From the NCBI GenBank assembly GCA_963599585.1, contig CAVBXG010000003.1, forward strand, positions 11,346 through 75,345: a stretch of DNA of 64,000 nucleotides. The letters are read 5' to 3'. The position numbers and the translations under genes are program-made. Shown piece by piece: positions 1-38,058 of the stretch. Below the pieces are notes generated by a model. It saw nothing but the letters and a program-made list of their open reading frames with translations. It was not told the DNA's origin and did no database searches. The DNA comes from a bacterium. Lineage in GTDB: Bacteria > Spirochaetota > Spirochaetia > Treponematales > Treponemataceae. Position 1 is the first letter of the stretch. Every line of letters begins with the position of its first letter.

Positions 1-397
1 CGGACTTTCCGTCTATCACAACCGCCTGAAGCATATTCCGCTCAACAATATTCGCCTTTCCTTCCAAAAATGAATCAAGTTCGCATTTCCATTCATCTTT
101 TTGAATGCTGGCTATAAATCCAAATTCTCCAAAATTTATCGGAAAGACAGGAATTCCTCGTTCAACGCAGCCACGCGCCGCAAAAAGAACAGTTCCATCG
201 CCACCAAGAGTTATTACAAAATCCGCGGACAAAAAAGGATTAGTTTTTGAATTATCAAATTTTTCCGCCTCAGAAAATCCGTCAAATGAAAAAATAGTTG
301 AATCAATTTTTTTCCTTTTTAGATATTCAGAAATAAACTGACCCATTTCCTGAGACTCTTTTTTGTGAGTGTTTACAATTATAAGGCAATTTTTCAT
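1..397 (-). CDS. nadK: NAD kinase, N-terminal part (C-terminus lies outside the window)
   Basis: Reverse-strand translation from ATG at 397 reads MKNCLIIVNTHKKESQEMGQFISEYL...ADFVITLGGDGTVLFAARG...FPINFGEFGF. The GGDGT motif and overall pattern match the NAD kinase family. The frame stays open to the window edge. Confidence 0.75.
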   Translation of the reverse strand, partial: MKNCLIIVNTHKKESQEMGQFISEYLKRKKIDSTIFSFDGFSEAEKFDNSKTNPFLSADFVITLGGDGTVLFAARGCVERGIPVFPINFGEFGFIASIQKDEWKCELDSFLEGKANIVERNMLQAVVIDGKS

Positions 398-400
398 TCT

Positions 401-1540
401 TTACGGCAAAGTTCCCAAAACTTTCACTATTTTAGCGACTTGTGAATGAGTAAGCCGCGGATAAAGAGGAAATAAAGCGCACCGCAAGTACAAAGATTTT
501 GCCTTTATGCAGTCCGAAGAAATCTCCTCCTGTTTTAAAGCCATTACAGAATCCTCGTAAGCCTGACAGATTTCAATATCTTTTTTTGCGGCATACTGTT
601 TTATGTCTTTGAATGAAGTTGTAAGAATCAGCGGAAAACAGCACATTGTCGAAGTGTAATCATAAGTTTCCTCTGAGGAATTCTCACCTTCTGTTTTTGG
701 AGCCGCGACCGCAGAAACACCTTTTGCCGCCGGAACAACAGCTCCAGAACCGCGGATAAACATCTTGTGTCTGCCACTCATGCAAGCACGCTGATACAAG
801 GCAAAAATCTTCTTACGCTGAAGCTCATTGTGCTTAAATTCTTTCAGTTGAACCCATCCCAACGCGCAATTCAAATCCGGAAGCAATTCAGTTCTTGGCA
901 TTGACTCAACAAATTTCTTCAGCACAATCCATTCGCGGCGGTTCGGAGCCATAAGAACTGCACCTCCACCAGCTGTAACAACATCACGCTCCTCAAGCCC
1001 AAGAATTGTAAAAACGCCCAAAGAACCGGCTTTCCGACCTTCAATAGGATTATTATTCTCATCAAATGCAGGGAAAAAAGAACCTGCACTTTTTGAAACA
1101 TCCTCAATAACTGGAATTCCAAGCGCATTTATCTCATCGATTTCAGGAAGAATTCCCATTGACTCATGAAGCAAAAGAAGCCGACCGCCCTTTTCTATTC
1201 CTTTTTTTACAAGTTCTGCATTTACAAGCCCGGAATTTTCATCAACGTCAAGTATAATCGGTCTGTAGCCTAAATCAACAATCGCCTGATAATGCCATGC
1301 CGGAGCAAGAGCTGAAATCATTATAGCTTCACCGGATTTAAAATCCATCGAACGCAGCGCATATTTCAACGCAGACGCAGGATTTCTTAACGCAACCGCA
1401 CCGTCACATCCAAAAAAATCCTTTACCGTCTGAATAAATCTGCCGTTAAGCTCGCCAGGCCCAATACGCTCATCAACCATGCAGGTAAGCACGGCATCCA
1501 TTTCTTTACGTCGAATTGTTGTACTAAAAGTCTGAATCAT
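401..1540 (-). CDS. DegT/DnrJ/EryC1/StrS-family PLP-dependent aminotransferase-like protein
   Basis: 379-aa ORF with family-typical layout (GPGELNGRF..., ALRNPASALKYAL, VIEDVSKSAG, TAGGGAVLMAPN). The expected Schiff-base lysine position looks substituted (see findings). Confidence 0.7.
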   Translation of the reverse strand: MIQTFSTTIRRKEMDAVLTCMVDERIGPGELNGRFIQTVKDFFGCDGAVALRNPASALKYALRSMDFKSGEAIMISALAPAWHYQAIVDLGYRPIILDVDENSGLVNAELVKKGIEKGGRLLLLHESMGILPEIDEINALGIPVIEDVSKSAGSFFPAFDENNNPIEGRKAGSLGVFTILGLEERDVVTAGGGAVLMAPNRREWIVLKKFVESMPRTELLPDLNCALGWVQLKEFKHNELQRKKIFALYQRACMSGRHKMFIRGSGAVVPAAKGVSAVAAPKTEGENSSEETYDYTSTMCCFPLILTTSFKDIKQYAAKKDIEICQAYEDSVMALKQEEISSDCIKAKSLYLRCALFPLYPRLTHSQVAKIVKVLGTLP

Positions 1541-1551
1541 TTTTCAAGTAT

Positions 1552-2031
1552 TTAAAAATTTCCTACAATTTTTTGAAGTTCCTTCGGATTAAACAGTCTG
1601 ACAATATCCAGAATTATCAGATAGCCGTTATCATTTCTGACAACACCTCTTATATATTCGCTGCCTATTCCTCCAGACATTCTTGGAGCTGCCTGAATTT
1701 CAGAAGAATTCACCGTTGCAACCCTTGAAACCCGGTCAATTATTATACCAAGCTGATTTCCATCAATATTTAAAATTATAAATCCGCTTTCAAGCTCATC
1801 AAGTTCATCTTCGCCACTTGCAAAAGCAATATTAAAACGCCGGTGAAGATCAATTATCGGAATAATTTCACCACGAAGGTTCAAAATTCCGACCATATAA
1901 TTTGGAGCATTTGGAATCGGACGAATTGGCTGGATTCTTACAATCTCTTTTACAGACATAATATCCACACCATATAACTCGTTTCCCAGACGGAACGTAA
2001 CTAACTGTATCTGCGAATCTTCAGTATCCAT
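1552..2031 (-). CDS. cheW: Chemotaxis coupling protein CheW
   Basis: QLVTFRLGNELYGVDIMSVKEIVRI...VGILNLRGEIIPIIDL is a classic CheW domain. ATG 2031 is preceded by AGAGGA. Longer starts at 2052 and 2076 (TTG) are possible. Confidence 0.85.
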   Translation of the reverse strand: MDTEDSQIQLVTFRLGNELYGVDIMSVKEIVRIQPIRPIPNAPNYMVGILNLRGEIIPIIDLHRRFNIAFASGEDELDELESGFIILNIDGNQLGIIIDRVSRVATVNSSEIQAAPRMSGGIGSEYIRGVVRNDNGYLIILDIVRLFNPKELQKIVGNF

Positions 2032-2098
2032 AAAATCCTCTACAATAAGCATACTATGAAAAATCCCTTTTTGCAATTAATTAGCTCCATCTGCCGCA

Positions 2099-2866
2099 TT
2101 AGCGGTCTACAGAAAACAAAGCTACAGCGAACACTTTTTTGCATCCAGCCTCTTTCAATTTTTCAGCGCAAGACTCAATTGTACTTCCTGTGGTAAGAAC
2201 ATCATCCACAAGGCAGACAACTTCCGGCACAATTTTCACATCTGCGTTCAAAGAATATGCTTTCCCGATCATTTCCATTCTTTGATTGCGTTCAAGAGTC
2301 TTCTGCTCAACATTTGTATGCCGACACAAAATTCTTCTGACATTCCAATTGTACCTGAATTCAAGAATCTGGCTTATTTCATCTACTTGATCCCAGCCTT
2401 TGGATTTTATTTTCCCCGGTCTAGGCGGAACAGGAACCACAACAAATTCCCCATTCATCTTCCAAATCTGACTTAACCTTTCATTCATCAGTTCTGCAAG
2501 AAAATCAGAAAAAATCCGTTCGTCCTCAAGTTTCCACCTGCACAACAAACTTGTATTCCACAAACGATACGAAAACAGCGGAAAAGCACCGTCCAAATGT
2601 TTCATAAGGACATCTTTTCTACATTCCATACAGACATCGTTTTCAGAAATAAGTTCCTTGCCGCAGAATTTACAAACTCCAACGCCGACAGGTTTTACCG
2701 CAAAAAATTTCTTCCGGCAATCCGTGCACACAGGCAGAAGTCCTGAGTCATTTCCGCAGACAATACATTCGCTTCCACCCGCAAAAAATGAAAAAACAGA
2801 ACGCCCGAACCTTAGCGCGACAGACTGAATACCGAAAATAATTTTGTTCACATTTATATATAGCAA
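2099..2866 (-). CDS. comF: ComF-family protein (zinc-ribbon plus phosphoribosyltransferase domain)
   Basis: N-terminal CxxC pairs (CIVCGN...CTDCRKKF, CKFCGK...CMECR) and a C-terminal PRT motif VCLVDDVLTTGSTIESCAEKLKEAG. Confidence 0.8.
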   Translation of the reverse strand: MLYINVNKIIFGIQSVALRFGRSVFSFFAGGSECIVCGNDSGLLPVCTDCRKKFFAVKPVGVGVCKFCGKELISENDVCMECRKDVLMKHLDGAFPLFSYRLWNTSLLCRWKLEDERIFSDFLAELMNERLSQIWKMNGEFVVVPVPPRPGKIKSKGWDQVDEISQILEFRYNWNVRRILCRHTNVEQKTLERNQRMEMIGKAYSLNADVKIVPEVVCLVDDVLTTGSTIESCAEKLKEAGCKKVFAVALFSVDR

Positions 2867-2899
2867 ATAAAAATCAAAAACTGAAACAAATCACAAAAA

Positions 2900-5503
2900 T
2901 TATCTTCCAGAAAGCGCTTTTTTCCACCTTGAAATAGCTTGAAGGGCGGCCAACGGCGTCATATTATCCGGATCTGCAGAAAGAATTTCGTCCAGAACAA
3001 TTTCCTCATCGCTAAAAAGTCCCGGCGCAACGGGATTTTGCCTTGCAAGCTCAGTTTCCTTGTACTCAGGAATTTCATCAAGAACAGGCTTGTTTTCCGC
3101 AACATTCTGGATATGACAAAGAATTTCATTCGCGCGTTTTATTACAATTTCTGGAACACCGGCAAGTTTTGCAACATGAATTCCATAAGAATTTTCACTT
3201 GCGCCGACTTTTATCTTCCGCAAAAAAGTAACAGATTCACCCTGCTCAGAGACTTCCATGCACAAAAGCTCAAGATTTTTATGCTCAATTCTAGTCAATT
3301 CGTGGTAATGCGTCGCAAACAAAGTTCGGCATTTTATATTGTTCAAAAGATATTCGCTCACAGCCCAGGCAATAGAAAGTCCGTCTTCCGTGCTTGTTCC
3401 TCGCCCGACCTCATCCATTATGACCAGAGATTTTTCAGTCGCAGAGCGCAGAATATTTGCGGTTTCCGTCATTTCAACAAGAAAAGTCGATTCACCGCGC
3501 GCAAGATTATCGCTTGCCCCAACACGGCAAAAAATCCGGTCAACAACGCCGATTTCAGCAGATTCAGCAGGAACAAAAGAACCTGTCTGTGCAAGAAGCG
3601 CAATCAATGCATTCTGCCGCAAAAAAGTGCTTTTTCCAGCCATATTCGGTCCCGTAATAAGGCAAAAAGTTTTTGCGTCAGATTTTTCCGCCGAAATATC
3701 CAAGTCGTTTGGAACAAATTCCCCGGAAGGCAGATGTTTTTCAACAACAGGATGACGACCTTTTTTCACATTGAAAATTCCAGAGTCAACAACATCCGGG
3801 CGAACCCAATTGTTCAGAACCGCAGCCTTTGCAAAAGAGGAAGCCGCATCCGTATAAGCAATTTCAGAAGCCGTCTGCATAAGGTACGGCACATAATCGT
3901 GGAGTTTTGTGCGGATTTCAACAAACAAGTCGCGCTCAAGCTCAAGAATCTGCGTTCCAGCCTCGTTCAGCTCATGCTCAAGTTCCTGAAGCTTCGCTGT
4001 TGTGTATCGGTCGCCGTTCACAAGGGCTCGGCGCATAATAAAATCTGCAGGAACAGAAGAAAGTTTTCCCTTGCTGATTTCAATGAAATATCCGAACGCA
4101 TTTGTGTTTTTTATCTTCAAATTCGTAATTCCAGTACGCTCACGTTCCTCTTTCTCATAACCAGAAAGAATCTGACCAAAATTATCGTGAACATTTCGCC
4201 AGTGGTCAAGTTCCTCCGACCAGCCTGATTTTATAATTCTTCCTTCCGTCAAAGAAGTCGCCGGATCTTCACAAATCGCATTTTGAATCAAATCAATTAT
4301 TTCAACTGCCGGCGTATCATCAATTGAAGCAAAATCGTATTCAGAAAGCTCATTTCTTGCCTTCAGCCATGCGACAAGACTCGCCTTTAAAGCCTGCAAA
4401 TCTTTTGCATGAGCCCTGTCCATCGCGATTCGCCCGGCCAGACGCTCAACATCCAGAATCGGACTAATTTCTTCCCGCACAGAATCCATCAAATTCCGGT
4501 TTTCGTAAAAAAGCTGAACATGAGATTGGCGCGCATTGATTTTCTGCACATCAGTAAGCGGATACAAAAGCCACTGGCGAATCATGCGGCTTCCCATCGC
4601 GGTTTCAGCGTAATTCAGACATTCAAGAAGGCTGAACTGGGCAGAACCGTCGCGCAAATTTGCAACAACCTCAAGATTACGGCGGCTTGAATCATCAATA
4701 ATAAGATAATTTGTGTCTTTATAAACTTTGATTGATTTTACGTGCGGAACAACTGTATTTGTGGTTTTCGCAAGATAATCAAGAAGAAATCCGGCTGGCG
4801 ACACTTCCGCGGAAGTTTTTTCCAGCCCGAAAGACAAAAGGCTTGCCGTTCCGAACTGTTCCGTCAGTCTTTTGTAAGAAAGCTCTGAATTAAAATCCCA
4901 GTCAGGATAATAAGAAATCGACATGGAAGGATATTGCGCAAGAGAATCCTGAATTACACGGTTCTGCCTAAGCGATTGCGGCAAAAGAATTTCCCGCGGC
5001 GAGCAACGTCCCAATTCTTTTGGAAACTGCTCCGCCATTTCGTTTGAATGCCAGCTGGTCGCAGAAAAAGAGGCTGTTGTAACATCAATAAAAGCAAACC
5101 CAACGCCTCCGTGCGTTACAGCCAATGCCGCAAGAAAATTGTTTGAATTTCCTTCAAGATATTCAGACTCAAGCGCAGTTCCCGGAGTGATTATCTCGAC
5201 AACCTTGCGTTCTGTAAGCCCTTTTGCTTTTGGATCGCCAACCTGCTCGCAGATTACAACTTTTCTTCCAGCCCTAAGAAGCCGCGCAATATAAATTTTT
5301 GCGGCATGGTACGGAATTCCGCACATCGGAGCCGCACCTTTATGAGTCAAAGTTAAATTCAAAAGCCTGGAAACTTCTCCGGCATCGTCAAAGAACATCT
5401 CATAAAAATCGCCAACCCTAAAAAAAAGAATCTCGTTTTTATGTTCACTTTTTATTTTTACGTATTGCTCTAAAACCGGAGTGAGTGCTACATCTGTTTC
5501 CAC
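2900..5503 (-). CDS. mutS: DNA mismatch repair protein MutS
   Basis: 867-aa ORF with TPVLEQYVKIKSEHKNEILFFRVGDFYEMF, Walker A ITGPNMAGKSTFLRQ and DEVGRGTST motifs. Confidence 0.97.
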   Translation of the reverse strand: METDVALTPVLEQYVKIKSEHKNEILFFRVGDFYEMFFDDAGEVSRLLNLTLTHKGAAPMCGIPYHAAKIYIARLLRAGRKVVICEQVGDPKAKGLTERKVVEIITPGTALESEYLEGNSNNFLAALAVTHGGVGFAFIDVTTASFSATSWHSNEMAEQFPKELGRCSPREILLPQSLRQNRVIQDSLAQYPSMSISYYPDWDFNSELSYKRLTEQFGTASLLSFGLEKTSAEVSPAGFLLDYLAKTTNTVVPHVKSIKVYKDTNYLIIDDSSRRNLEVVANLRDGSAQFSLLECLNYAETAMGSRMIRQWLLYPLTDVQKINARQSHVQLFYENRNLMDSVREEISPILDVERLAGRIAMDRAHAKDLQALKASLVAWLKARNELSEYDFASIDDTPAVEIIDLIQNAICEDPATSLTEGRIIKSGWSEELDHWRNVHDNFGQILSGYEKEERERTGITNLKIKNTNAFGYFIEISKGKLSSVPADFIMRRALVNGDRYTTAKLQELEHELNEAGTQILELERDLFVEIRTKLHDYVPYLMQTASEIAYTDAASSFAKAAVLNNWVRPDVVDSGIFNVKKGRHPVVEKHLPSGEFVPNDLDISAEKSDAKTFCLITGPNMAGKSTFLRQNALIALLAQTGSFVPAESAEIGVVDRIFCRVGASDNLARGESTFLVEMTETANILRSATEKSLVIMDEVGRGTSTEDGLSIAWAVSEYLLNNIKCRTLFATHYHELTRIEHKNLELLCMEVSEQGESVTFLRKIKVGASENSYGIHVAKLAGVPEIVIKRANEILCHIQNVAENKPVLDEIPEYKETELARQNPVAPGLFSDEEIVLDEILSADPDNMTPLAALQAISRWKKALSGR

Positions 5504-34129: not shown

Positions 34130-34149
34130 AAAAGGGCGAAGCCTCGCCC
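34130..34149 (-). terminator. Second GC-rich hairpin plus T4 (weak terminator) upstream of prfB
   Basis: Minus strand reads GGGCGA ggct TCGCCC TTTT, a 6-bp GC-rich stem with a tetraloop and a short T run. Confidence 0.4.
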
Positions 34150-34230
34150 TGCGCCTCAAACCTGCGGTTTTCGTCTACCCACTCTCCTAAGGGGACACCC
34201 CTTAAAAACCCCGGAAAAGTATTCTAAAAT

Positions 34231-34269
34231 AAAAAAAAACGCAGCCGGCTCAAAATAGTTCCGCCTGCG
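34231..34269 (-). terminator. Rho-independent terminator of the lipoprotein gene
   Basis: Minus strand reads cgcaggcgg - 12-nt loop - ccggctgcg (9-bp stem, one mismatch) followed by T9, about 40 nt after the stop at 34308. Confidence 0.7.
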
Positions 34270-34307
34270 GACAGTTTGTCAATACAATAAACAGACTGTT
34301 TTATTTA

Positions 34308-36143
34308 TTATTCGCTTACTTTTGCAAATACAGAAGAATCAGAAACAAGAGCCTTTACAACATAGTAAAGAGTTGAAACATTAGATTCTGTAGAACGTTT
34401 ATCTTCAATATCTTTTTTGCAGAATTCTGTTTCTCCTGCTGGATATGCAAGTTCCACATTTCCAAGGTTTGCTGTAGTAACACTAACAGAATCAAAATAG
34501 TCTTTGCTTGTTGTTGTTACAACTTTGTAAAGAGTGTATCTGTAGTTTGAAACCGAATCAACTTTTGAATCTTTTGCTATATATTCTGTTACAGTAACTT
34601 TTGTTCCGTCTGAAGTAACATCAAGCGTATAACCAAGTGCTTCTGCCGGACTTACAATTATAACTTCATATACAGAAGCATCTTTTTTATCTTTTTCAGA
34701 TGCTGTAAGTTTTACAAGATATGTTCCAGCCTTGGCTTTTTCAATGTAATTGATGTAAGAATCCGCATATCCGTCATTGTTTGCAAGCTCAAGAACAGTA
34801 AACTCAGAAGGAATATATTCCACTGCATCACCATCTGCATTTTCTGCAAGTTTTACATAAGAAAGTGTAAGCGTCTGATTTTCGTTTGCTTTTTCAGAAG
34901 TAATCTTTATTGTGTTTTCAACACCATCTGTACTTCCAACAAATGTACTTACATAAAGTGTCGGACTGTCAGTTTCTTGAACTGTAACAGCTGCCAGCCT
35001 TTTAGAGTTATTATATACATCATAACTTCCAAAATATGTTCCATCTGTATGAACTACATAATATGTATATCCAATAGAATCATCTTCTACAGTGTCTGTA
35101 ATGTAGTAACCTTCGGAAACAACTGTTGCTCCGCCAGTAACATCGTCTGCTTTCTGTCCTTCTTTTACTTCCGCATCAAGTGCTGTCCAAGTAGAATCTG
35201 CATCTGAACTTCTGTAAACCTTAAAGTTTTCAACTGGAGAATTTTTTCCTGTAGCCATAAGTTTCGCAGGAGCCCAACTTACAACAACAGATTTTGAAGC
35301 AATGTATCTTGCATCAACATTTGTAACTGGCATTGATTCCCCAATGTCTTTTGCTGTTAAAGAGCCAAGTTTCACAACAACAGGCTTATAAAGGTCTGAA
35401 ACAGAAGTTACTGTAAGAAGAATTTCAACTTCAGAAGAACTTACAACTGGTGTAGAAAATTCGGCCTTGTAGTCTTCTTTATAGTTTTCAGTATATACAT
35501 TAGCGGCAACTGAATCACCCAAAGCCTCATATTTTCCTTTTGGAACACAAGCAATTCCGTACTTAAAACCTGCCGTCGCCGGATATTCTGCATAGTAGTA
35601 TTCTTGATTTACTGAAAGTTTTACATTTTCTGAAGCTTTTGTAACAAGTTTTTCGTAGTATTTTTTGATATAGTCTTTAGCGGAATCGGAAACTGGCTCT
35701 GCAGAAATTGCAGGTGAACCGGCAGTAGGAACAACAGCCTTTACAGAAGCAGTACCTTTTGAATTTTTTACATACACTTCACGGCTTGCAGGATCAGTAT
35801 CGCTTACAGCTTCTACAATGTATTTATATTCCTTTCCATCTGCAAGAATATGGTCAGAAGAAGCAATATCCGCATAACACGTAACATCAGAAGCGACATT
35901 TCTTAACACAGAATAGCCACCATCCTGAACTCTGTAGATTTTATAGCCCTGGGCACTTGTTACAGGCTCCCATGAAATATAGTTTACGCCTGGATAAGCC
36001 TTTGCCGTTACCCTAGGAGCATCCAGAGAATAAATGGTGTCTGTTTTCGCATCATATTCAGTAGAATCTCCACAAGACTCAAAACCAAATACTGAAACGG
36101 CAATCAAGCCAGTTCCCAAAAGTTTAAAGATTGTTTTTTTCAC
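34308..36143 (-). CDS. Surface/periplasmic lipoprotein with three Fn3-like modules
   Basis: 611 aa. GTG start is preceded by GGAGG. Lipoprotein-type signal MKKTIFKLLGTGLIAVSVFGFESC. Recurrent module signatures: YKIYRVQDGG...YKYIVEAVS, FKVYRSSDADSTWTAL...YTYYVVHTD, YRYTLYKVV...LYYVVKAL. It has its own promoter and terminator. Confidence 0.7.
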   Translation of the reverse strand: MKKTIFKLLGTGLIAVSVFGFESCGDSTEYDAKTDTIYSLDAPRVTAKAYPGVNYISWEPVTSAQGYKIYRVQDGGYSVLRNVASDVTCYADIASSDHILADGKEYKYIVEAVSDTDPASREVYVKNSKGTASVKAVVPTAGSPAISAEPVSDSAKDYIKKYYEKLVTKASENVKLSVNQEYYYAEYPATAGFKYGIACVPKGKYEALGDSVAANVYTENYKEDYKAEFSTPVVSSSEVEILLTVTSVSDLYKPVVVKLGSLTAKDIGESMPVTNVDARYIASKSVVVSWAPAKLMATGKNSPVENFKVYRSSDADSTWTALDAEVKEGQKADDVTGGATVVSEGYYITDTVEDDSIGYTYYVVHTDGTYFGSYDVYNNSKRLAAVTVQETDSPTLYVSTFVGSTDGVENTIKITSEKANENQTLTLSYVKLAENADGDAVEYIPSEFTVLELANNDGYADSYINYIEKAKAGTYLVKLTASEKDKKDASVYEVIIVSPAEALGYTLDVTSDGTKVTVTEYIAKDSKVDSVSNYRYTLYKVVTTTSKDYFDSVSVTTANLGNVELAYPAGETEFCKKDIEDKRSTESNVSTLYYVVKALVSDSSVFAKVSE

Positions 36144-36161
36144 AAAAACCTCCGTAAATAT

Positions 36162-36240
36162 TCAGAGAGTTCTTGCAAATGATAAGATTTATGCTTTAAA
36201 AGCAAAAAAAACTTGTATTAAGCCAAATGCTTAACTCTCT
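36162..36240 (-). other. 9-bp perfect inverted repeat bracketing most of the predicted lipoprotein 5' UTR (potential 5'-terminal stem)
   Basis: Plus-strand cagagagtt (36162..36170) and aactctctg (36232..36240) are exact reverse complements, 61 nt apart. The distal arm starts about 3 nt after the predicted TSS and the proximal arm ends about 12 nt before the GGAGG RBS. Confidence 0.4.
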
Positions 36241-36249
36241 GATGACTGA

Positions 36250-36277
36250 ATCCTACCCCCCCCCGTCGTTTTGTCAA
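36250..36277 (-). promoter_or_regulatory. Sigma70-type promoter TTGACA-N16-TAGGAT whose spacer contains a G9 tract; upstream of the 611-aa lipoprotein gene
   Basis: Minus strand reads TTGACA aaacgac GGGGGGGGG TAGGAT. The -35 is at 36277..36272, the spacer at 36271..36256 and the -10 at 36255..36250, about 107 nt upstream of the GTG start. Confidence 0.55.
36256..36264. repeat. Homopolymeric C9 (plus strand) / G9 (minus strand) tract
   Basis: Nine consecutive C read directly at 36256..36264. It is the only G/C homopolymer of this length I saw in the window. Confidence 0.95.
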
Positions 36278-36341
36278 GTATCTGTGGAAAAATGTTTAAA
36301 GAAACATGATTTTTTTTACTCTCCAGATAAAACTATTTTTT

Positions 36342-36369
36342 TTGACTTAAAAAAAATCTGCTGTAAAAT
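36342..36369 (+). promoter_or_regulatory. Sigma70-type promoter TTGACT-N16-TAAAAT for the TGS-kinase gene
   Basis: TTGACT at 36342..36347 and TAAAAT at 36364..36369, about 30 nt upstream of ATG 36400. Confidence 0.5.
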
Positions 36370-36399
36370 TGATTGTATCACAACTAAAGGCGGTGCTTT

Positions 36400-38058
36400 A
36401 TGAAAGACGAAAAACTAAAAATCACATATCCGGACGGAAAAACCATTGAAGTTGAAAAAGGAACTTCGGCTTCTGAGCTTGCAAAAAATTTCCAGAACAA
36501 CGGACAGGTTCTTGCGCTCCGCATGAACAACAAAATCTACTCGCTGGAAAAAATGATAAAATATTCGGCAAAAATCGAGCCGGTTTTCATAAACACAAAG
36601 GATGGCGCAAACATTTACCGCCGCTCGCTTTGCCTTCTGCTTGCAGCCGCGGCGCACAAACTCTACCCGGAATCCAAGCTTCTTGTCGGGCACAGCCTTG
36701 GTTACGGCTACTACTACACTTTTGGAAACGGAAACAAAATCTGCGATGAAAACATCTCTCTTATCGAAAAAGAAATGCAGAAAATGGTTCAGCAGGACAT
36801 TCCGATTGAAACAGAAACAATCTCCTACAACGAGGCGGTTTCCCTTTTTGAAAAGCTCGGTCTTGAAAAAACGCGCAAACAGCTGAATTTCATCGCTCCG
36901 CCACGAGTAAAAATCAATTCAATAGAAGATTTCAGCGACCTTTATTTTGGACCGCTTGTGCTTTCAACCGGCGTTTTAAAGACTTTCGCGCTAAAACCTT
37001 ATGGCGAAGGCTTCCTACTAAGGTTCCCGAACTCTTCTGACCACAGCAAACTCACAGAATTTGTTAACGAGCCTAAACTTTTTGAAATCTACAGCAAATA
37101 CAAAAAATGGGGACAAAGACTTGGAATCACTTCCGCCGCAGATTTGAACGAGCTTATCACAAAGCGGAAAATCAACGATTTTATCGATATAACCGAAACA
37201 TTCCAGGAAAAAAACATTGCGGAAATCGCAGACCAGATTGTGCAGAAAAAAACGGTGCGCGTCGTTCTTATTGCCGGTCCTTCTTCCTCCGGGAAAACAA
37301 CCACCTCAAAAAAACTCTCGCTTGAACTTCTTGCAATGGGCTACACGCCAAAAGTAATCAGCCTTGACAGCTATTATGTTGACCATTCGCGCACACCAAA
37401 AGATGAAAATGGAAATTTTGACTTTGAATGTCTGGAGGCACTTGACATTGAGCTTTTGAACCAGAATCTTGTTGACCTTTTTGCGGGAAAAGAAGTTATA
37501 GTTCCCACATACGATTTTCACAGCGGAACACAGACTTTTGATGAAAAAAACAAGATGAAGCTTGCAGAAAACGAGATTCTGATTATGGAAGGAATCCACG
37601 GACTGAATCCAAAACTTACGCCAAAAATTCCTGCTGAATATAAGTTCAAGATTTATCTTTCGGCATTGACACAACTGAACCTTGACGACCACAACCGCAT
37701 TCCTACAAGCAACAACCGCCTTATCCGCCGCATTGTCCGCGACTACCAGTTCCGCGGCAAATCCGCAGCCGGTACAATCGCGATGTGGCCAAGCGTTCAA
37801 AATGGCGAGCAGCTTCACATTTTTCCGTTCCAGAACAATGCGGATGCAGTTCTGAACACAGCACTGGACTACGAGCTTAGCGTGCTTAAGGTTTATGCAG
37901 AACCGCTTTTGCGCTGCGTAACTCCAAACGAGCCGGAATATTCTGAAGCGTGCATGCTGCTTTCTTTCCTGGATAATTTTGCAACAATCGCGCCGACTCA
38001 AGTTCCTGTCCGCTCAATAATCCGGGAATTTATAGGCGGCTCGGCGTTCCATTACTAA
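36400..38058 (+). CDS. Uridine/nucleoside kinase-family protein fused to N-terminal TGS and ThrRS-SAD-like domains
   Basis: N-terminal TGS-like KITYPDGKTIEVEKGTSASELA, then a ThrRS second-additional-domain-like segment (YRRSLCLLLAAAAHKLYP), then a P-loop kinase (VVLIAGPSSSGKTTTSKKL...EGIHGLNP). Confidence 0.75.
   Translation: MKDEKLKITYPDGKTIEVEKGTSASELAKNFQNNGQVLALRMNNKIYSLEKMIKYSAKIEPVFINTKDGANIYRRSLCLLLAAAAHKLYPESKLLVGHSLGYGYYYTFGNGNKICDENISLIEKEMQKMVQQDIPIETETISYNEAVSLFEKLGLEKTRKQLNFIAPPRVKINSIEDFSDLYFGPLVLSTGVLKTFALKPYGEGFLLRFPNSSDHSKLTEFVNEPKLFEIYSKYKKWGQRLGITSAADLNELITKRKINDFIDITETFQEKNIAEIADQIVQKKTVRVVLIAGPSSSGKTTTSKKLSLELLAMGYTPKVISLDSYYVDHSRTPKDENGNFDFECLEALDIELLNQNLVDLFAGKEVIVPTYDFHSGTQTFDEKNKMKLAENEILIMEGIHGLNPKLTPKIPAEYKFKIYLSALTQLNLDDHNRIPTSNNRLIRRIVRDYQFRGKSAAGTIAMWPSVQNGEQLHIFPFQNNADAVLNTALDYELSVLKVYAEPLLRCVTPNEPEYSEACMLLSFLDNFATIAPTQVPVRSIIREFIGGSAFHY

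Follow-up and report, generated by a model that had tools for sequence, protein, structure and literature searches.

A length-variable poly-G tract in the promoter spacer of a lipoprotein gene of a gut Treponema as a candidate phase-variation switch

The stretch of 64,000 nucleotides (nt) analysed here (the window) is derived from a spirochaete of the family Treponemataceae (GenBank assembly GCA_963599585.1, contig CAVBXG010000003.1, positions 11,346 to 75,345 of the forward strand). It contains, on its minus strand, a gene for a predicted lipoprotein, the putative promoter of which carries an uninterrupted run of nine G's between the -35 and -10 hexamers. The length of this tract is polymorphic among very close relatives in which the flanking DNA is fixed. 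Comparison of these sequences suggests that the locus is probably a simple-sequence contingency locus, at which slippage in the G-tract spacer varies the use of the promoter and thereby switches or dims the lipoprotein. The tract had been put forward as a candidate phase-variation switch in a preliminary description of the window, and the comparative evidence lends support to this proposal. The elements concerned are as follows.

36272..36277, minus strand: -35 hexamer TTGACA (direct reading and promoter scan)
36265..36271, minus strand: non-repeat part of the spacer, AAACGAC, 7 nt (direct reading)
36256..36264, minus strand: G9 homopolymer GGGGGGGGG (C9 on the plus strand), the hypermutable element (run-length count and comparison of orthologues)
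36250..36255, minus strand: -10 hexamer TAGGAT, of the TAnnnT type (direct reading and promoter scan)
34308..36143, minus strand: gene proposed to be regulated, encoding a 611-amino-acid predicted lipoprotein with Fn3-like beta-sandwich domains (open reading frame and translation, GTG start)

The minus strand reads TTGACA-AAACGAC-GGGGGGGGG-TAGGAT from 36277 to 36250, and the base 5' of TTGACA on this strand is t. The spacer is 16 nt long, and nine of these are G. The perfect -35 hexamer, the TAnnnT -10 hexamer and the 16-nt spacer named in the preliminary description are reproduced both by direct reading and by a promoter scan, and its arithmetic, according to which G8, G9 and G10 give spacers of 15, 16 and 17 nt respectively, is right. 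The consensus promoter scan recovers the TTGACA/TAGGAT site with 10 of 12 matches. A perfect TTGACA-N16-18-TAnnnT arrangement occurs six times in the window, as compared with 1.8 expected. Run-length counts also bear out the earlier remark that no other long run of G or C exists in the window: the C9/G9 run at 36256..36264 is the sole run longer than 5 nt, and the pooled G/C runs number 16820 of 1 nt, 4101 of 2 nt, 447 of 3 nt, 66 of 4 nt, two of 5 nt and one of 9 nt. The expected number of G or C runs of at least 9 nt is 0.06 per window (analytic first-order Markov model). Because about seven runs of at least 6 nt are expected from a first-order Markov model and only the tract is observed, the genome seems otherwise to avoid G/C homopolymers. 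A Logan assembly that is independent of the window (L001, SRR13434657) has the identical sequence with G9. The tract is an uninterrupted homopolymer within the range in which slippage is considered (about 8 nt or more), and the tracts in short-read assemblies of relatives range from G8 to G12.

Orthologous loci were collected from GTDB species representatives, from JGI and ENA metagenome contigs, and from ENA and Logan contigs encoding exact protein sequences. Related loci stem from metagenome-assembled genomes (MAGs) named Treponema sp. that were obtained from human-gut metagenomes (Hadza, Nepal), and the organism of the window is likewise a Treponema of the human gut. Thirty-seven loci, with both flanks present and with protein identities of 62-91%, were counted as independent, and all tract lengths are assembly consensus values. 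At all 37 loci TTGACA is invariant and is followed by a lead of 7-9 nt, an uninterrupted G tract, and then TAGGAT, TAGTAT or TACTAT (TAnnAT). The variants of the lead in orthologues (7, 8 or 9 nt) are AAAAGTC, AAAAAGTC, AATAAGTC and AAAAAGTCT. The lengths of the tract and of the spacer at the 37 loci are distributed as follows.

Tract length: G6 at 1 locus, G8 at 3, G9 at 5, G10 at 10, G11 at 17, G12 at 1
Spacer length: 14 nt at 1 locus, 16 nt at 6, 17 nt at 2, 18 nt at 7, 19 nt at 20, 20 nt at 1

Contigs that encode an identical protein differ in the length of the tract. It is G11 and G12 in contigs encoding P0090, G10 and G11 in those encoding P0096, G10 and G11 in those encoding P0002, which is the closest relative of the window protein (91% identity), and G9 and G10 in those encoding P0295. 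When a haplotype is defined by 128 identical flanking bases, 17 haplotypes are obtained, nine of which are seen more than once. The comparison of tract length in related strains and metagenome bins, proposed in the preliminary description as a check, is positive: the length ranges from G6 to G12 over the 37 loci, and five of the nine repeated haplotypes have more than one length. Twenty of the 44 pairs with identical flanks differ in tract length, including a pair of G8 and G11. Within haplotypes there are zero substitutions over the 128 flanking positions, and a T6-T8 run in the leader is also unvarying. The tract is thus hypervariable in length on otherwise identical DNA. Its length repeats across independent samples, being G10 in all of L045-47, G8 in all of L026, L029 and L030, and G11 in all of L063-66. 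This recurrence argues against random assembly noise in the length calls. The only interruption of the tract is one substitution at its edge, in L045-47.

Contigs often break at the tract, which fragments metagenome assemblies at the lipoprotein locus. Ten of the 19 contig ends located at most 400 nt upstream of the gene lie about 30 nt or less from the tract (binomial P = 1.7e-4), the 19 ends being the set tabulated before the later P0310 contigs were added. Four contigs of the tabulated set end inside the tract, and the P0310 set contains two further contigs of this kind, L067 and L068, which makes six in all. In scaffold L007, an N gap is flanked by two copies of the tract. These breaks are as expected from within-sample length heterogeneity; loss of coverage at a homopolymer could produce them likewise, and they are taken as supporting evidence only. 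L067 (1..14, Logan) and L068 (1..8, ENA) are both derived from run SRR1611980 and both start inside the tract. One of them opens with 14 or more G's, so that the tract may also exceed G12. The sequences downstream of the tract differ between these two contigs (TACTAT versus TAGTAT), indicating that two strains co-exist in this sample. The MAGs that hold L003, L005 and L007 are titled 'uncultured Clostridia bacterium', 'Paratractidigestivibacter sp.' and 'uncultured Prevotella sp.', probably as a result of binning contamination or mislabelling.

The upstream DNA of homologues with 29-46% protein identity is unalignable with that of the window, yet these homologues have a tract of their own inside a TTGAC[AT]-TAnnnT spacer. 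Their arrangements, from the -35 to the -10 hexamer, are as follows.

L032: TTGACA-8-G10-TATTTT
L035: TTGACA-8-G8-TAAATT
L036: TTGACT-4-G11-CA-TATAAT
L037 and L041: as L036, but with G8
L057-59: as L036, but with G9, G10 and G10 (these contigs encode an identical protein)
L055 and L056: TTGACA-3-G9-TAT-TAACAT
L039 and L040: TTGACA-4-C9 or C14-ATTGG-TAAACT (poly-C)

The hexamers that bracket the tract at the sequence level are conserved in the 37 orthologues and in six distant tract-bearing lineages. Because the hexamers and an uninterrupted homopolymer persist amid this divergence, the base being either G or C, and because such runs are avoided elsewhere, it is suggested that the slippery spacer is selected as such, and both a base-specific binding site and a neutral accident are disfavoured. 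One 136-kb contig (Ga0129306_1000113) holds the three paralogues L035, L036 and L037, at about 65, 33 and 6 kb, with tracts of G8, G11 and G8 respectively. The poly-C tracts lie at 1121..1129 of L039 (C9) and at 1116..1129 of L040 (C14), in a high-G+C relative. In L043, TTGACA-9-G9-TATACT (70..107) precedes a gene (155..1057) for an unrelated predicted lipoprotein of 300 amino acids, MKKKNILVVTVFSIICALFFVSC..., and the member of the family (1201..3501) is located just downstream, without a tract of its own. This member might be co-transcribed with the gene for the unrelated lipoprotein.

These results may be explained by the following mechanism. The uninterrupted G tract would occupy the greater part of the spacer that separates the -35 and -10 hexamers of a sigma-70-type promoter, which would serve a monocistronic lipoprotein gene. 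Slipped-strand mispairing during replication would add or remove G's, and this change would alter how far apart the two hexamers lie and how they are phased around the helix, and hence the efficiency with which RNA polymerase uses the promoter. The lipoprotein would thereby be switched or dimmed stochastically, heritably and reversibly within a population. We infer that TTGACA/TAGGAT is the promoter in use, that expression depends on the length of the tract, and that switching is frequent and reversible. The spacer of the window allele (16 nt) is within the usable range of 16-18 nt.

Several points weigh against this mechanism. The modal natural spacer is 19 nt (20 of 37 loci), and the canonical 17-nt spacer is found at only two of the 37 loci. 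Either the gene is usually OFF or weak, or the promoter departs from the 17-nt spacing rule of E. coli. As most relatives have spacers of 18-19 nt, expression of the gene is probably weak or OFF in the majority of the populations sampled. An OFF or weak state in most sampled populations is common for contingency genes. Family members without a tract exist (L038/L044 and L060-62). Some of the loci are possibly derived from the same sample re-assembled (ENA and Logan), which inflates the counts, and L006, with the G6 allele, is part of a complete-chromosome MAG, in which the homopolymer may be under-called if long reads were used. Differences between assemblies represent fast evolution of length, not its rate or its reversibility. 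Finally, a T-tract near the promoter of vpma genes of Mycoplasma agalactiae has no role in switching (PMC2268961). A homopolymer beside a promoter is not automatically a switch, and anatomy alone is no proof of one.

Comparable systems are known, and the mechanism has been demonstrated by experiment for TP0126 of T. pallidum and porA of Neisseria meningitidis (PMC7864442) and for vlp, maa2 and vmm of mycoplasmas (PMC2268961). The poly-G precedent in promoters of Treponema pallidum that was invoked in the preliminary description is real (PMC7864442). According to the summary of Giacani et al. 2015 in PMC7864442, TP0126 of T. pallidum, a homologue of OmpW, has poly-G in the -35/-10 spacer of a sigma-70 promoter, with a length that varies within and between strains, and its transcription is best at a 17-nt spacer. 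TP0126 and the gene in the window share the genus and, at the sequence level, the position of poly-G between the -35 and -10 hexamers, and an envelope product is predicted for the gene here as well. However, TP0126 is an OmpW-type beta-barrel, whereas the product here is a predicted Fn3-array lipoprotein. The hosts also differ, the one here being a free-living gut commensal with a G+C content of about 41% and otherwise almost no G/C runs, whereas T. pallidum is a pathogen of 52.8% G+C with about 100 such tracts (PMC8049484). For porA of Neisseria meningitidis, the same source describes poly-G in the -35/-10 spacer as a graded switch that acts through spacer length (PMC7864442). A homopolymeric G tract within this spacer is common to porA and the locus here, but porA is a single locus that encodes a porin in another phylum, whereas the product here is a lipoprotein of a gene family with one tract per paralogue.

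Lipoprotein genes are switched ON and OFF independently by insertions and deletions in the -35/-10 spacer in Mycoplasma hyorhinis (vlp), M. arthritidis (maa2) and M. mycoides (vmm) (PMC2268961). Among known systems, L035-37, with a tract in front of each of the three paralogues, are best compared with vlp, where spacer length varies in several related lipoprotein genes. The spacer tract of vlp was reported to be poly-A by Citti and Wise in 1995. In contrast to vlp, with its poly-A, short repetitive proteins and clustered genes, the family here has poly-G or poly-C tracts and Fn3 arrays, and the 64-kb window contains only one of its members. The poly-G tracts in the promoters of T. pallidum tprE/G/J, tprF/I and tprL permit transcription when they contain at most eight G's, and 7-11 G's are seen in vivo (PMC7864442). 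They resemble the tract here as treponemal poly-G in promoters of genes for candidate surface proteins. However, they lie upstream of the -10 hexamer or overlap it, and do not set the -35/-10 spacing, and the authors of the tprL work rule out a porA-like mechanism (PMC7864442).

The tpr tracts provide the model for an alternative, in which the tract is hypervariable and regulatory but acts otherwise than through spacing, either as a site for the binding or exclusion of a regulator or through promoter melting or DNA stiffness, and maybe together with the conserved leader. Such a locus would resemble tprE/G/J/L of T. pallidum or opc of N. meningitidis. It would accommodate the observation that most natural alleles give spacers of 18-19 nt instead of 17 nt. 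The poly-G of tprL exerts its effect at unchanged spacing, and a homologue of CRP takes part in the regulation of the tprE, tprG and tprJ promoters (PMC7864442). The leader of the lipoprotein gene is strongly conserved, and its alternative pairings involve the Shine-Dalgarno sequence. However, the tract is located strictly between the TTGAC[AT] and TAnnnT boxes in every lineage, and its poly-C form in one lineage (L039/40) argues against a base-specific site and for a role of length only. This alternative is considered unlikely. A G-quadruplex or another G-specific structure is rejected, because an intramolecular quadruplex requires more than one run of G's and the tract of one lineage is poly-C.

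It is improbable that the tract is a neutral hot spot, that is, a slippery spacer without a significant effect on expression. Alleles giving spacers of 14 to 20 nt all persist in nature, and the vpma T-tract is an earlier example of a tract that has no function (PMC2268961). However, a tract of at least 8 nt is kept at the same position of the promoter in several paralogues, as G or as C, and in lineages with protein identities as low as about 30%, whereas the genome avoids G/C runs elsewhere (no other run of at least 6 nt, as compared with about seven expected). A neutral tract should also decay by interruptions, and the edge substitution in L045-47 is the only one. It is very improbable that the true promoter is located elsewhere, with TTGACA/TAGGAT being fortuitous and the tract lying in a longer leader or upstream of the true promoter. 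The promoter scan scores nothing but a match to the consensus, which would leave room for this possibility, but the hexamers are conserved in all orthologues and in distant homologues with otherwise unalignable intergenic DNA, the conservation above the -35 hexamer ends after about 25 nt, at a synteny break, and a promoter scan of 35900..36700 on the strand of the lipoprotein gene finds no other promoter-like site. Sequencing or assembly artefacts at a difficult homopolymer are a most improbable source of the length differences: homopolymers of at least 9 nt are error-prone, contigs often end at the tract and the G6 call possibly comes from a long-read assembly, but the same length recurs per haplotype in independent samples (G8 three times, G10 three times, G11 four times), differences of up to 3 nt exist on identical flanks (G8 versus G11), and the window and the independent Logan assembly both have G9. 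A poly-G read artefact of two-colour chemistry is rejected, because the tract is internal, has conserved flanks and is present in many independent assemblies.

The N-terminus of the protein is MKKTIFKLLGTGLIAVSVFGFESC, with an MKK start, a hydrophobic stretch and Cys24. It would fit a lipoprotein signal peptide. Cys24 is conserved in at least 90% of an alignment of 34 sequences (25-91% identity). The residues that precede it are FESC in the window, FVSC in close orthologues and SC in the family consensus; FESC (residues 21-24, 36072..36083 on the minus strand) places Glu at position -2 to the lipidated Cys, as compared with Val in the FVSC of the orthologues. The Pfam family fn3 (PF00041) is matched below its gathering score (18.9 bits versus a cut-off of 25, E = 0.0018). 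The NCBIfam search with the lipoprotein gives no family match, and a PDB sequence search with the family profile gives nothing significant, titin alone appearing at E = 0.29. The AlphaFold2 model (mean pLDDT 79) is almost all-beta, with about six sandwich domains, and its top Foldseek matches in PDB are tandem FnIII arrays, namely fibronectin Fn7-10, titin, contactins and gp130 (E values of 1e-11 to 1e-7). Differences in the angles between domains keep the global TM-scores low (0.13-0.21). The lipoprotein is thus Fn3-like by its modelled fold, not by Pfam membership. The earlier assignment of a lipoprotein with Fn3-like modules holds, as the signal and Cys24 are conserved and the model resembles FnIII arrays, and the protein may be exposed on the outer surface or lie in the periplasm. 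The family has 241 representatives at E <= 1e-3 among 1.84 billion, and its members, where named, are called 'hypothetical protein [Treponema sp. / Treponemataceae]'. From these sequences, the family appears to be small and restricted to Treponema. A tblastn search of the protein against the window finds only the gene itself and no paralogue.

The transcript that would start from this promoter has a leader with the following predicted elements.

36144..36243, minus strand: predicted 5' untranslated leader of about 100 nt, its start being inferred from the -10 hexamer
36233..36242, minus strand: 5' arm (TCAGAGAGTT, UCAGAGAGUU) of an inverted repeat of 10 bp, right at the beginning of the predicted leader
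36162..36171, minus strand: 3' arm AACTCTCTGA of the inverted repeat, which holds CUCUCU (AACUCUCUGA)
36149..36153, minus strand: Shine-Dalgarno sequence GGAGG, 5 nt upstream of the GTG (direct reading)

The leader sequence is highly conserved among orthologues, and the -10 hexamer lies 102-111 nt from the start codon in every full orthologous locus except L024, where a deletion in the leader reduces this distance to 39 nt. In a consensus fold of 10 distinct orthologous leaders, the pairs of the inverted repeat are nearly invariant. These leaders show no compensatory changes in the inverted repeat, and because the repeat is nearly invariant, covariation neither supports nor refutes the structure of the leader. 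In the minimum-energy fold of the single window leader, CUCUCU of the 3' arm instead pairs with CGGAGG/GGAGG (z = -2.8). These folds suggest that an arrangement of anti-Shine-Dalgarno and anti-anti-Shine-Dalgarno sequences is possible. In the P0310 set (L063-66), the 5' arm is UUCAGAG, which would still pair, with the register shifted by 2 nt. Rfam gives nothing meaningful, either for the whole window at gathering thresholds or for the intergenic region at E <= 1, so the leader is not a described riboswitch or RNA family. In L024 (around 1160..1200), about 68 nt of the leader between two GTTTTTTGT repeats are absent, and both the 3' arm and the Shine-Dalgarno sequence are lost. Either the deletion is genuine, in which case the allele is probably not translated, or the assembly has collapsed at this point.

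The tract is located in a divergent intergenic region of 256 bp, which extends from the GTG at 36143 (minus strand) to the ATG at 36400 (plus strand). The features around the lipoprotein gene are as follows.

36400 onwards, plus strand: gene for a 552-amino-acid uridine-kinase-like protein (Pfam PRK) with a weak N-terminal thrS-like match (Pfam and NCBIfam search)
36342..36369, plus strand: promoter-like site TTGACT-16-TAAAAT of this divergent kinase-like gene (promoter scan)
34231..34274, minus strand: terminator-like hairpin with a T9 run (A9 on the plus strand), just 3' of the stop codon of the lipoprotein gene
34133..34150, minus strand: second, stronger terminator-like hairpin of seven pairs (five of them G-C), before the promoter-like site of prfB

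Further neighbours are fliJ and fliI (and fliH in L001) on one side and prfB on the other. Given the two terminator-like hairpins behind the lipoprotein gene and the separate promoter-like site of prfB, the tract probably controls one gene only, which suggests that the lipoprotein gene is monocistronic. The upstream neighbour varies among the relatives compared (L004, L008, L009, L016, L025, L026, L045, L053 and L063), while the promoter, the tract and the leader stay with the lipoprotein gene. The window keeps the full 552-amino-acid kinase-like gene beyond the synteny break (region 36278..36420). In some relatives, an N-terminal kinase-like remnant of 53 or 109 amino acids and then DUF2281/PIN genes are located upstream of the -35 hexamer, and in others a helix-turn-helix gene or unrelated DNA is found there. 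A role of the tract in the expression of the divergent kinase-like gene is rejected, because this gene has its own promoter-like site and is replaced or truncated in relatives while the tract stays. Many Logan contigs of about 15.8-15.9 kb carry the lipoprotein gene. The two examined, L011 (14.1 kb) and L012 (15.9 kb), share their end point, ATTTTACAGCAG, suggesting that a rearrangement recurs there or that the junction varies between strains. L016 (210..218) and L017 (209..217) contain a second G9 (C9 on the plus strand of the locus) about 165 nt upstream of an HU-HIG-family gene and near the DUF2281/PIN toxin-antitoxin pair. It is of equal length in both contigs and has no clear -35 or -10 hexamer around it. 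A scan of the window for tRNA and tmRNA genes finds none.

The locus adds a predicted member to the known class of promoter-spacer homopolymers of treponemes, Neisseria and Mycoplasma. To our knowledge, work on phase variation through homopolymers in promoters has been confined almost entirely to pathogens such as T. pallidum, Neisseria, Haemophilus and Mycoplasma. The locus is of added interest because the host is a commensal gut spirochaete and the tract marks a whole lineage-specific family of lipoproteins, with several paralogues predicted to be independently switchable in some genomes. In a comparative study, homopolymeric tracts were reported to be fewest in a commensal treponeme of the gastrointestinal tract (PMC8049484). 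In the full-text literature searched, no paper is found on such a poly-G switch in gut Treponema. The locus points to a surface protein under fluctuating selection, exerted for example by IgA, phage or adhesion niches, and the tract is a marker, the state of which could be read straight from metagenomic reads. It is also possible, although this extension is tentative, that the system is family-wide in gut and host-associated Treponema, with each Fn3-array lipoprotein paralogue having its own poly-G or poly-C spacer switch and the paralogues together forming a combinatorial coat like that of Vlp. If so, a commensal spirochaete characteristic of the gut in non-industrialised human populations would have a Vlp-like surface coat. 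The TTGACA-Gn-TAnnnT module is also found before an unrelated lipoprotein gene (L043), and the pairing of anti-Shine-Dalgarno and anti-anti-Shine-Dalgarno sequences in the leader might be a second layer of control. Invertase-based switching is known from Bacteroides. In gut Treponema, phase variation based on simple sequence repeats, not invertase-based switching, would then be a main route of surface diversification.

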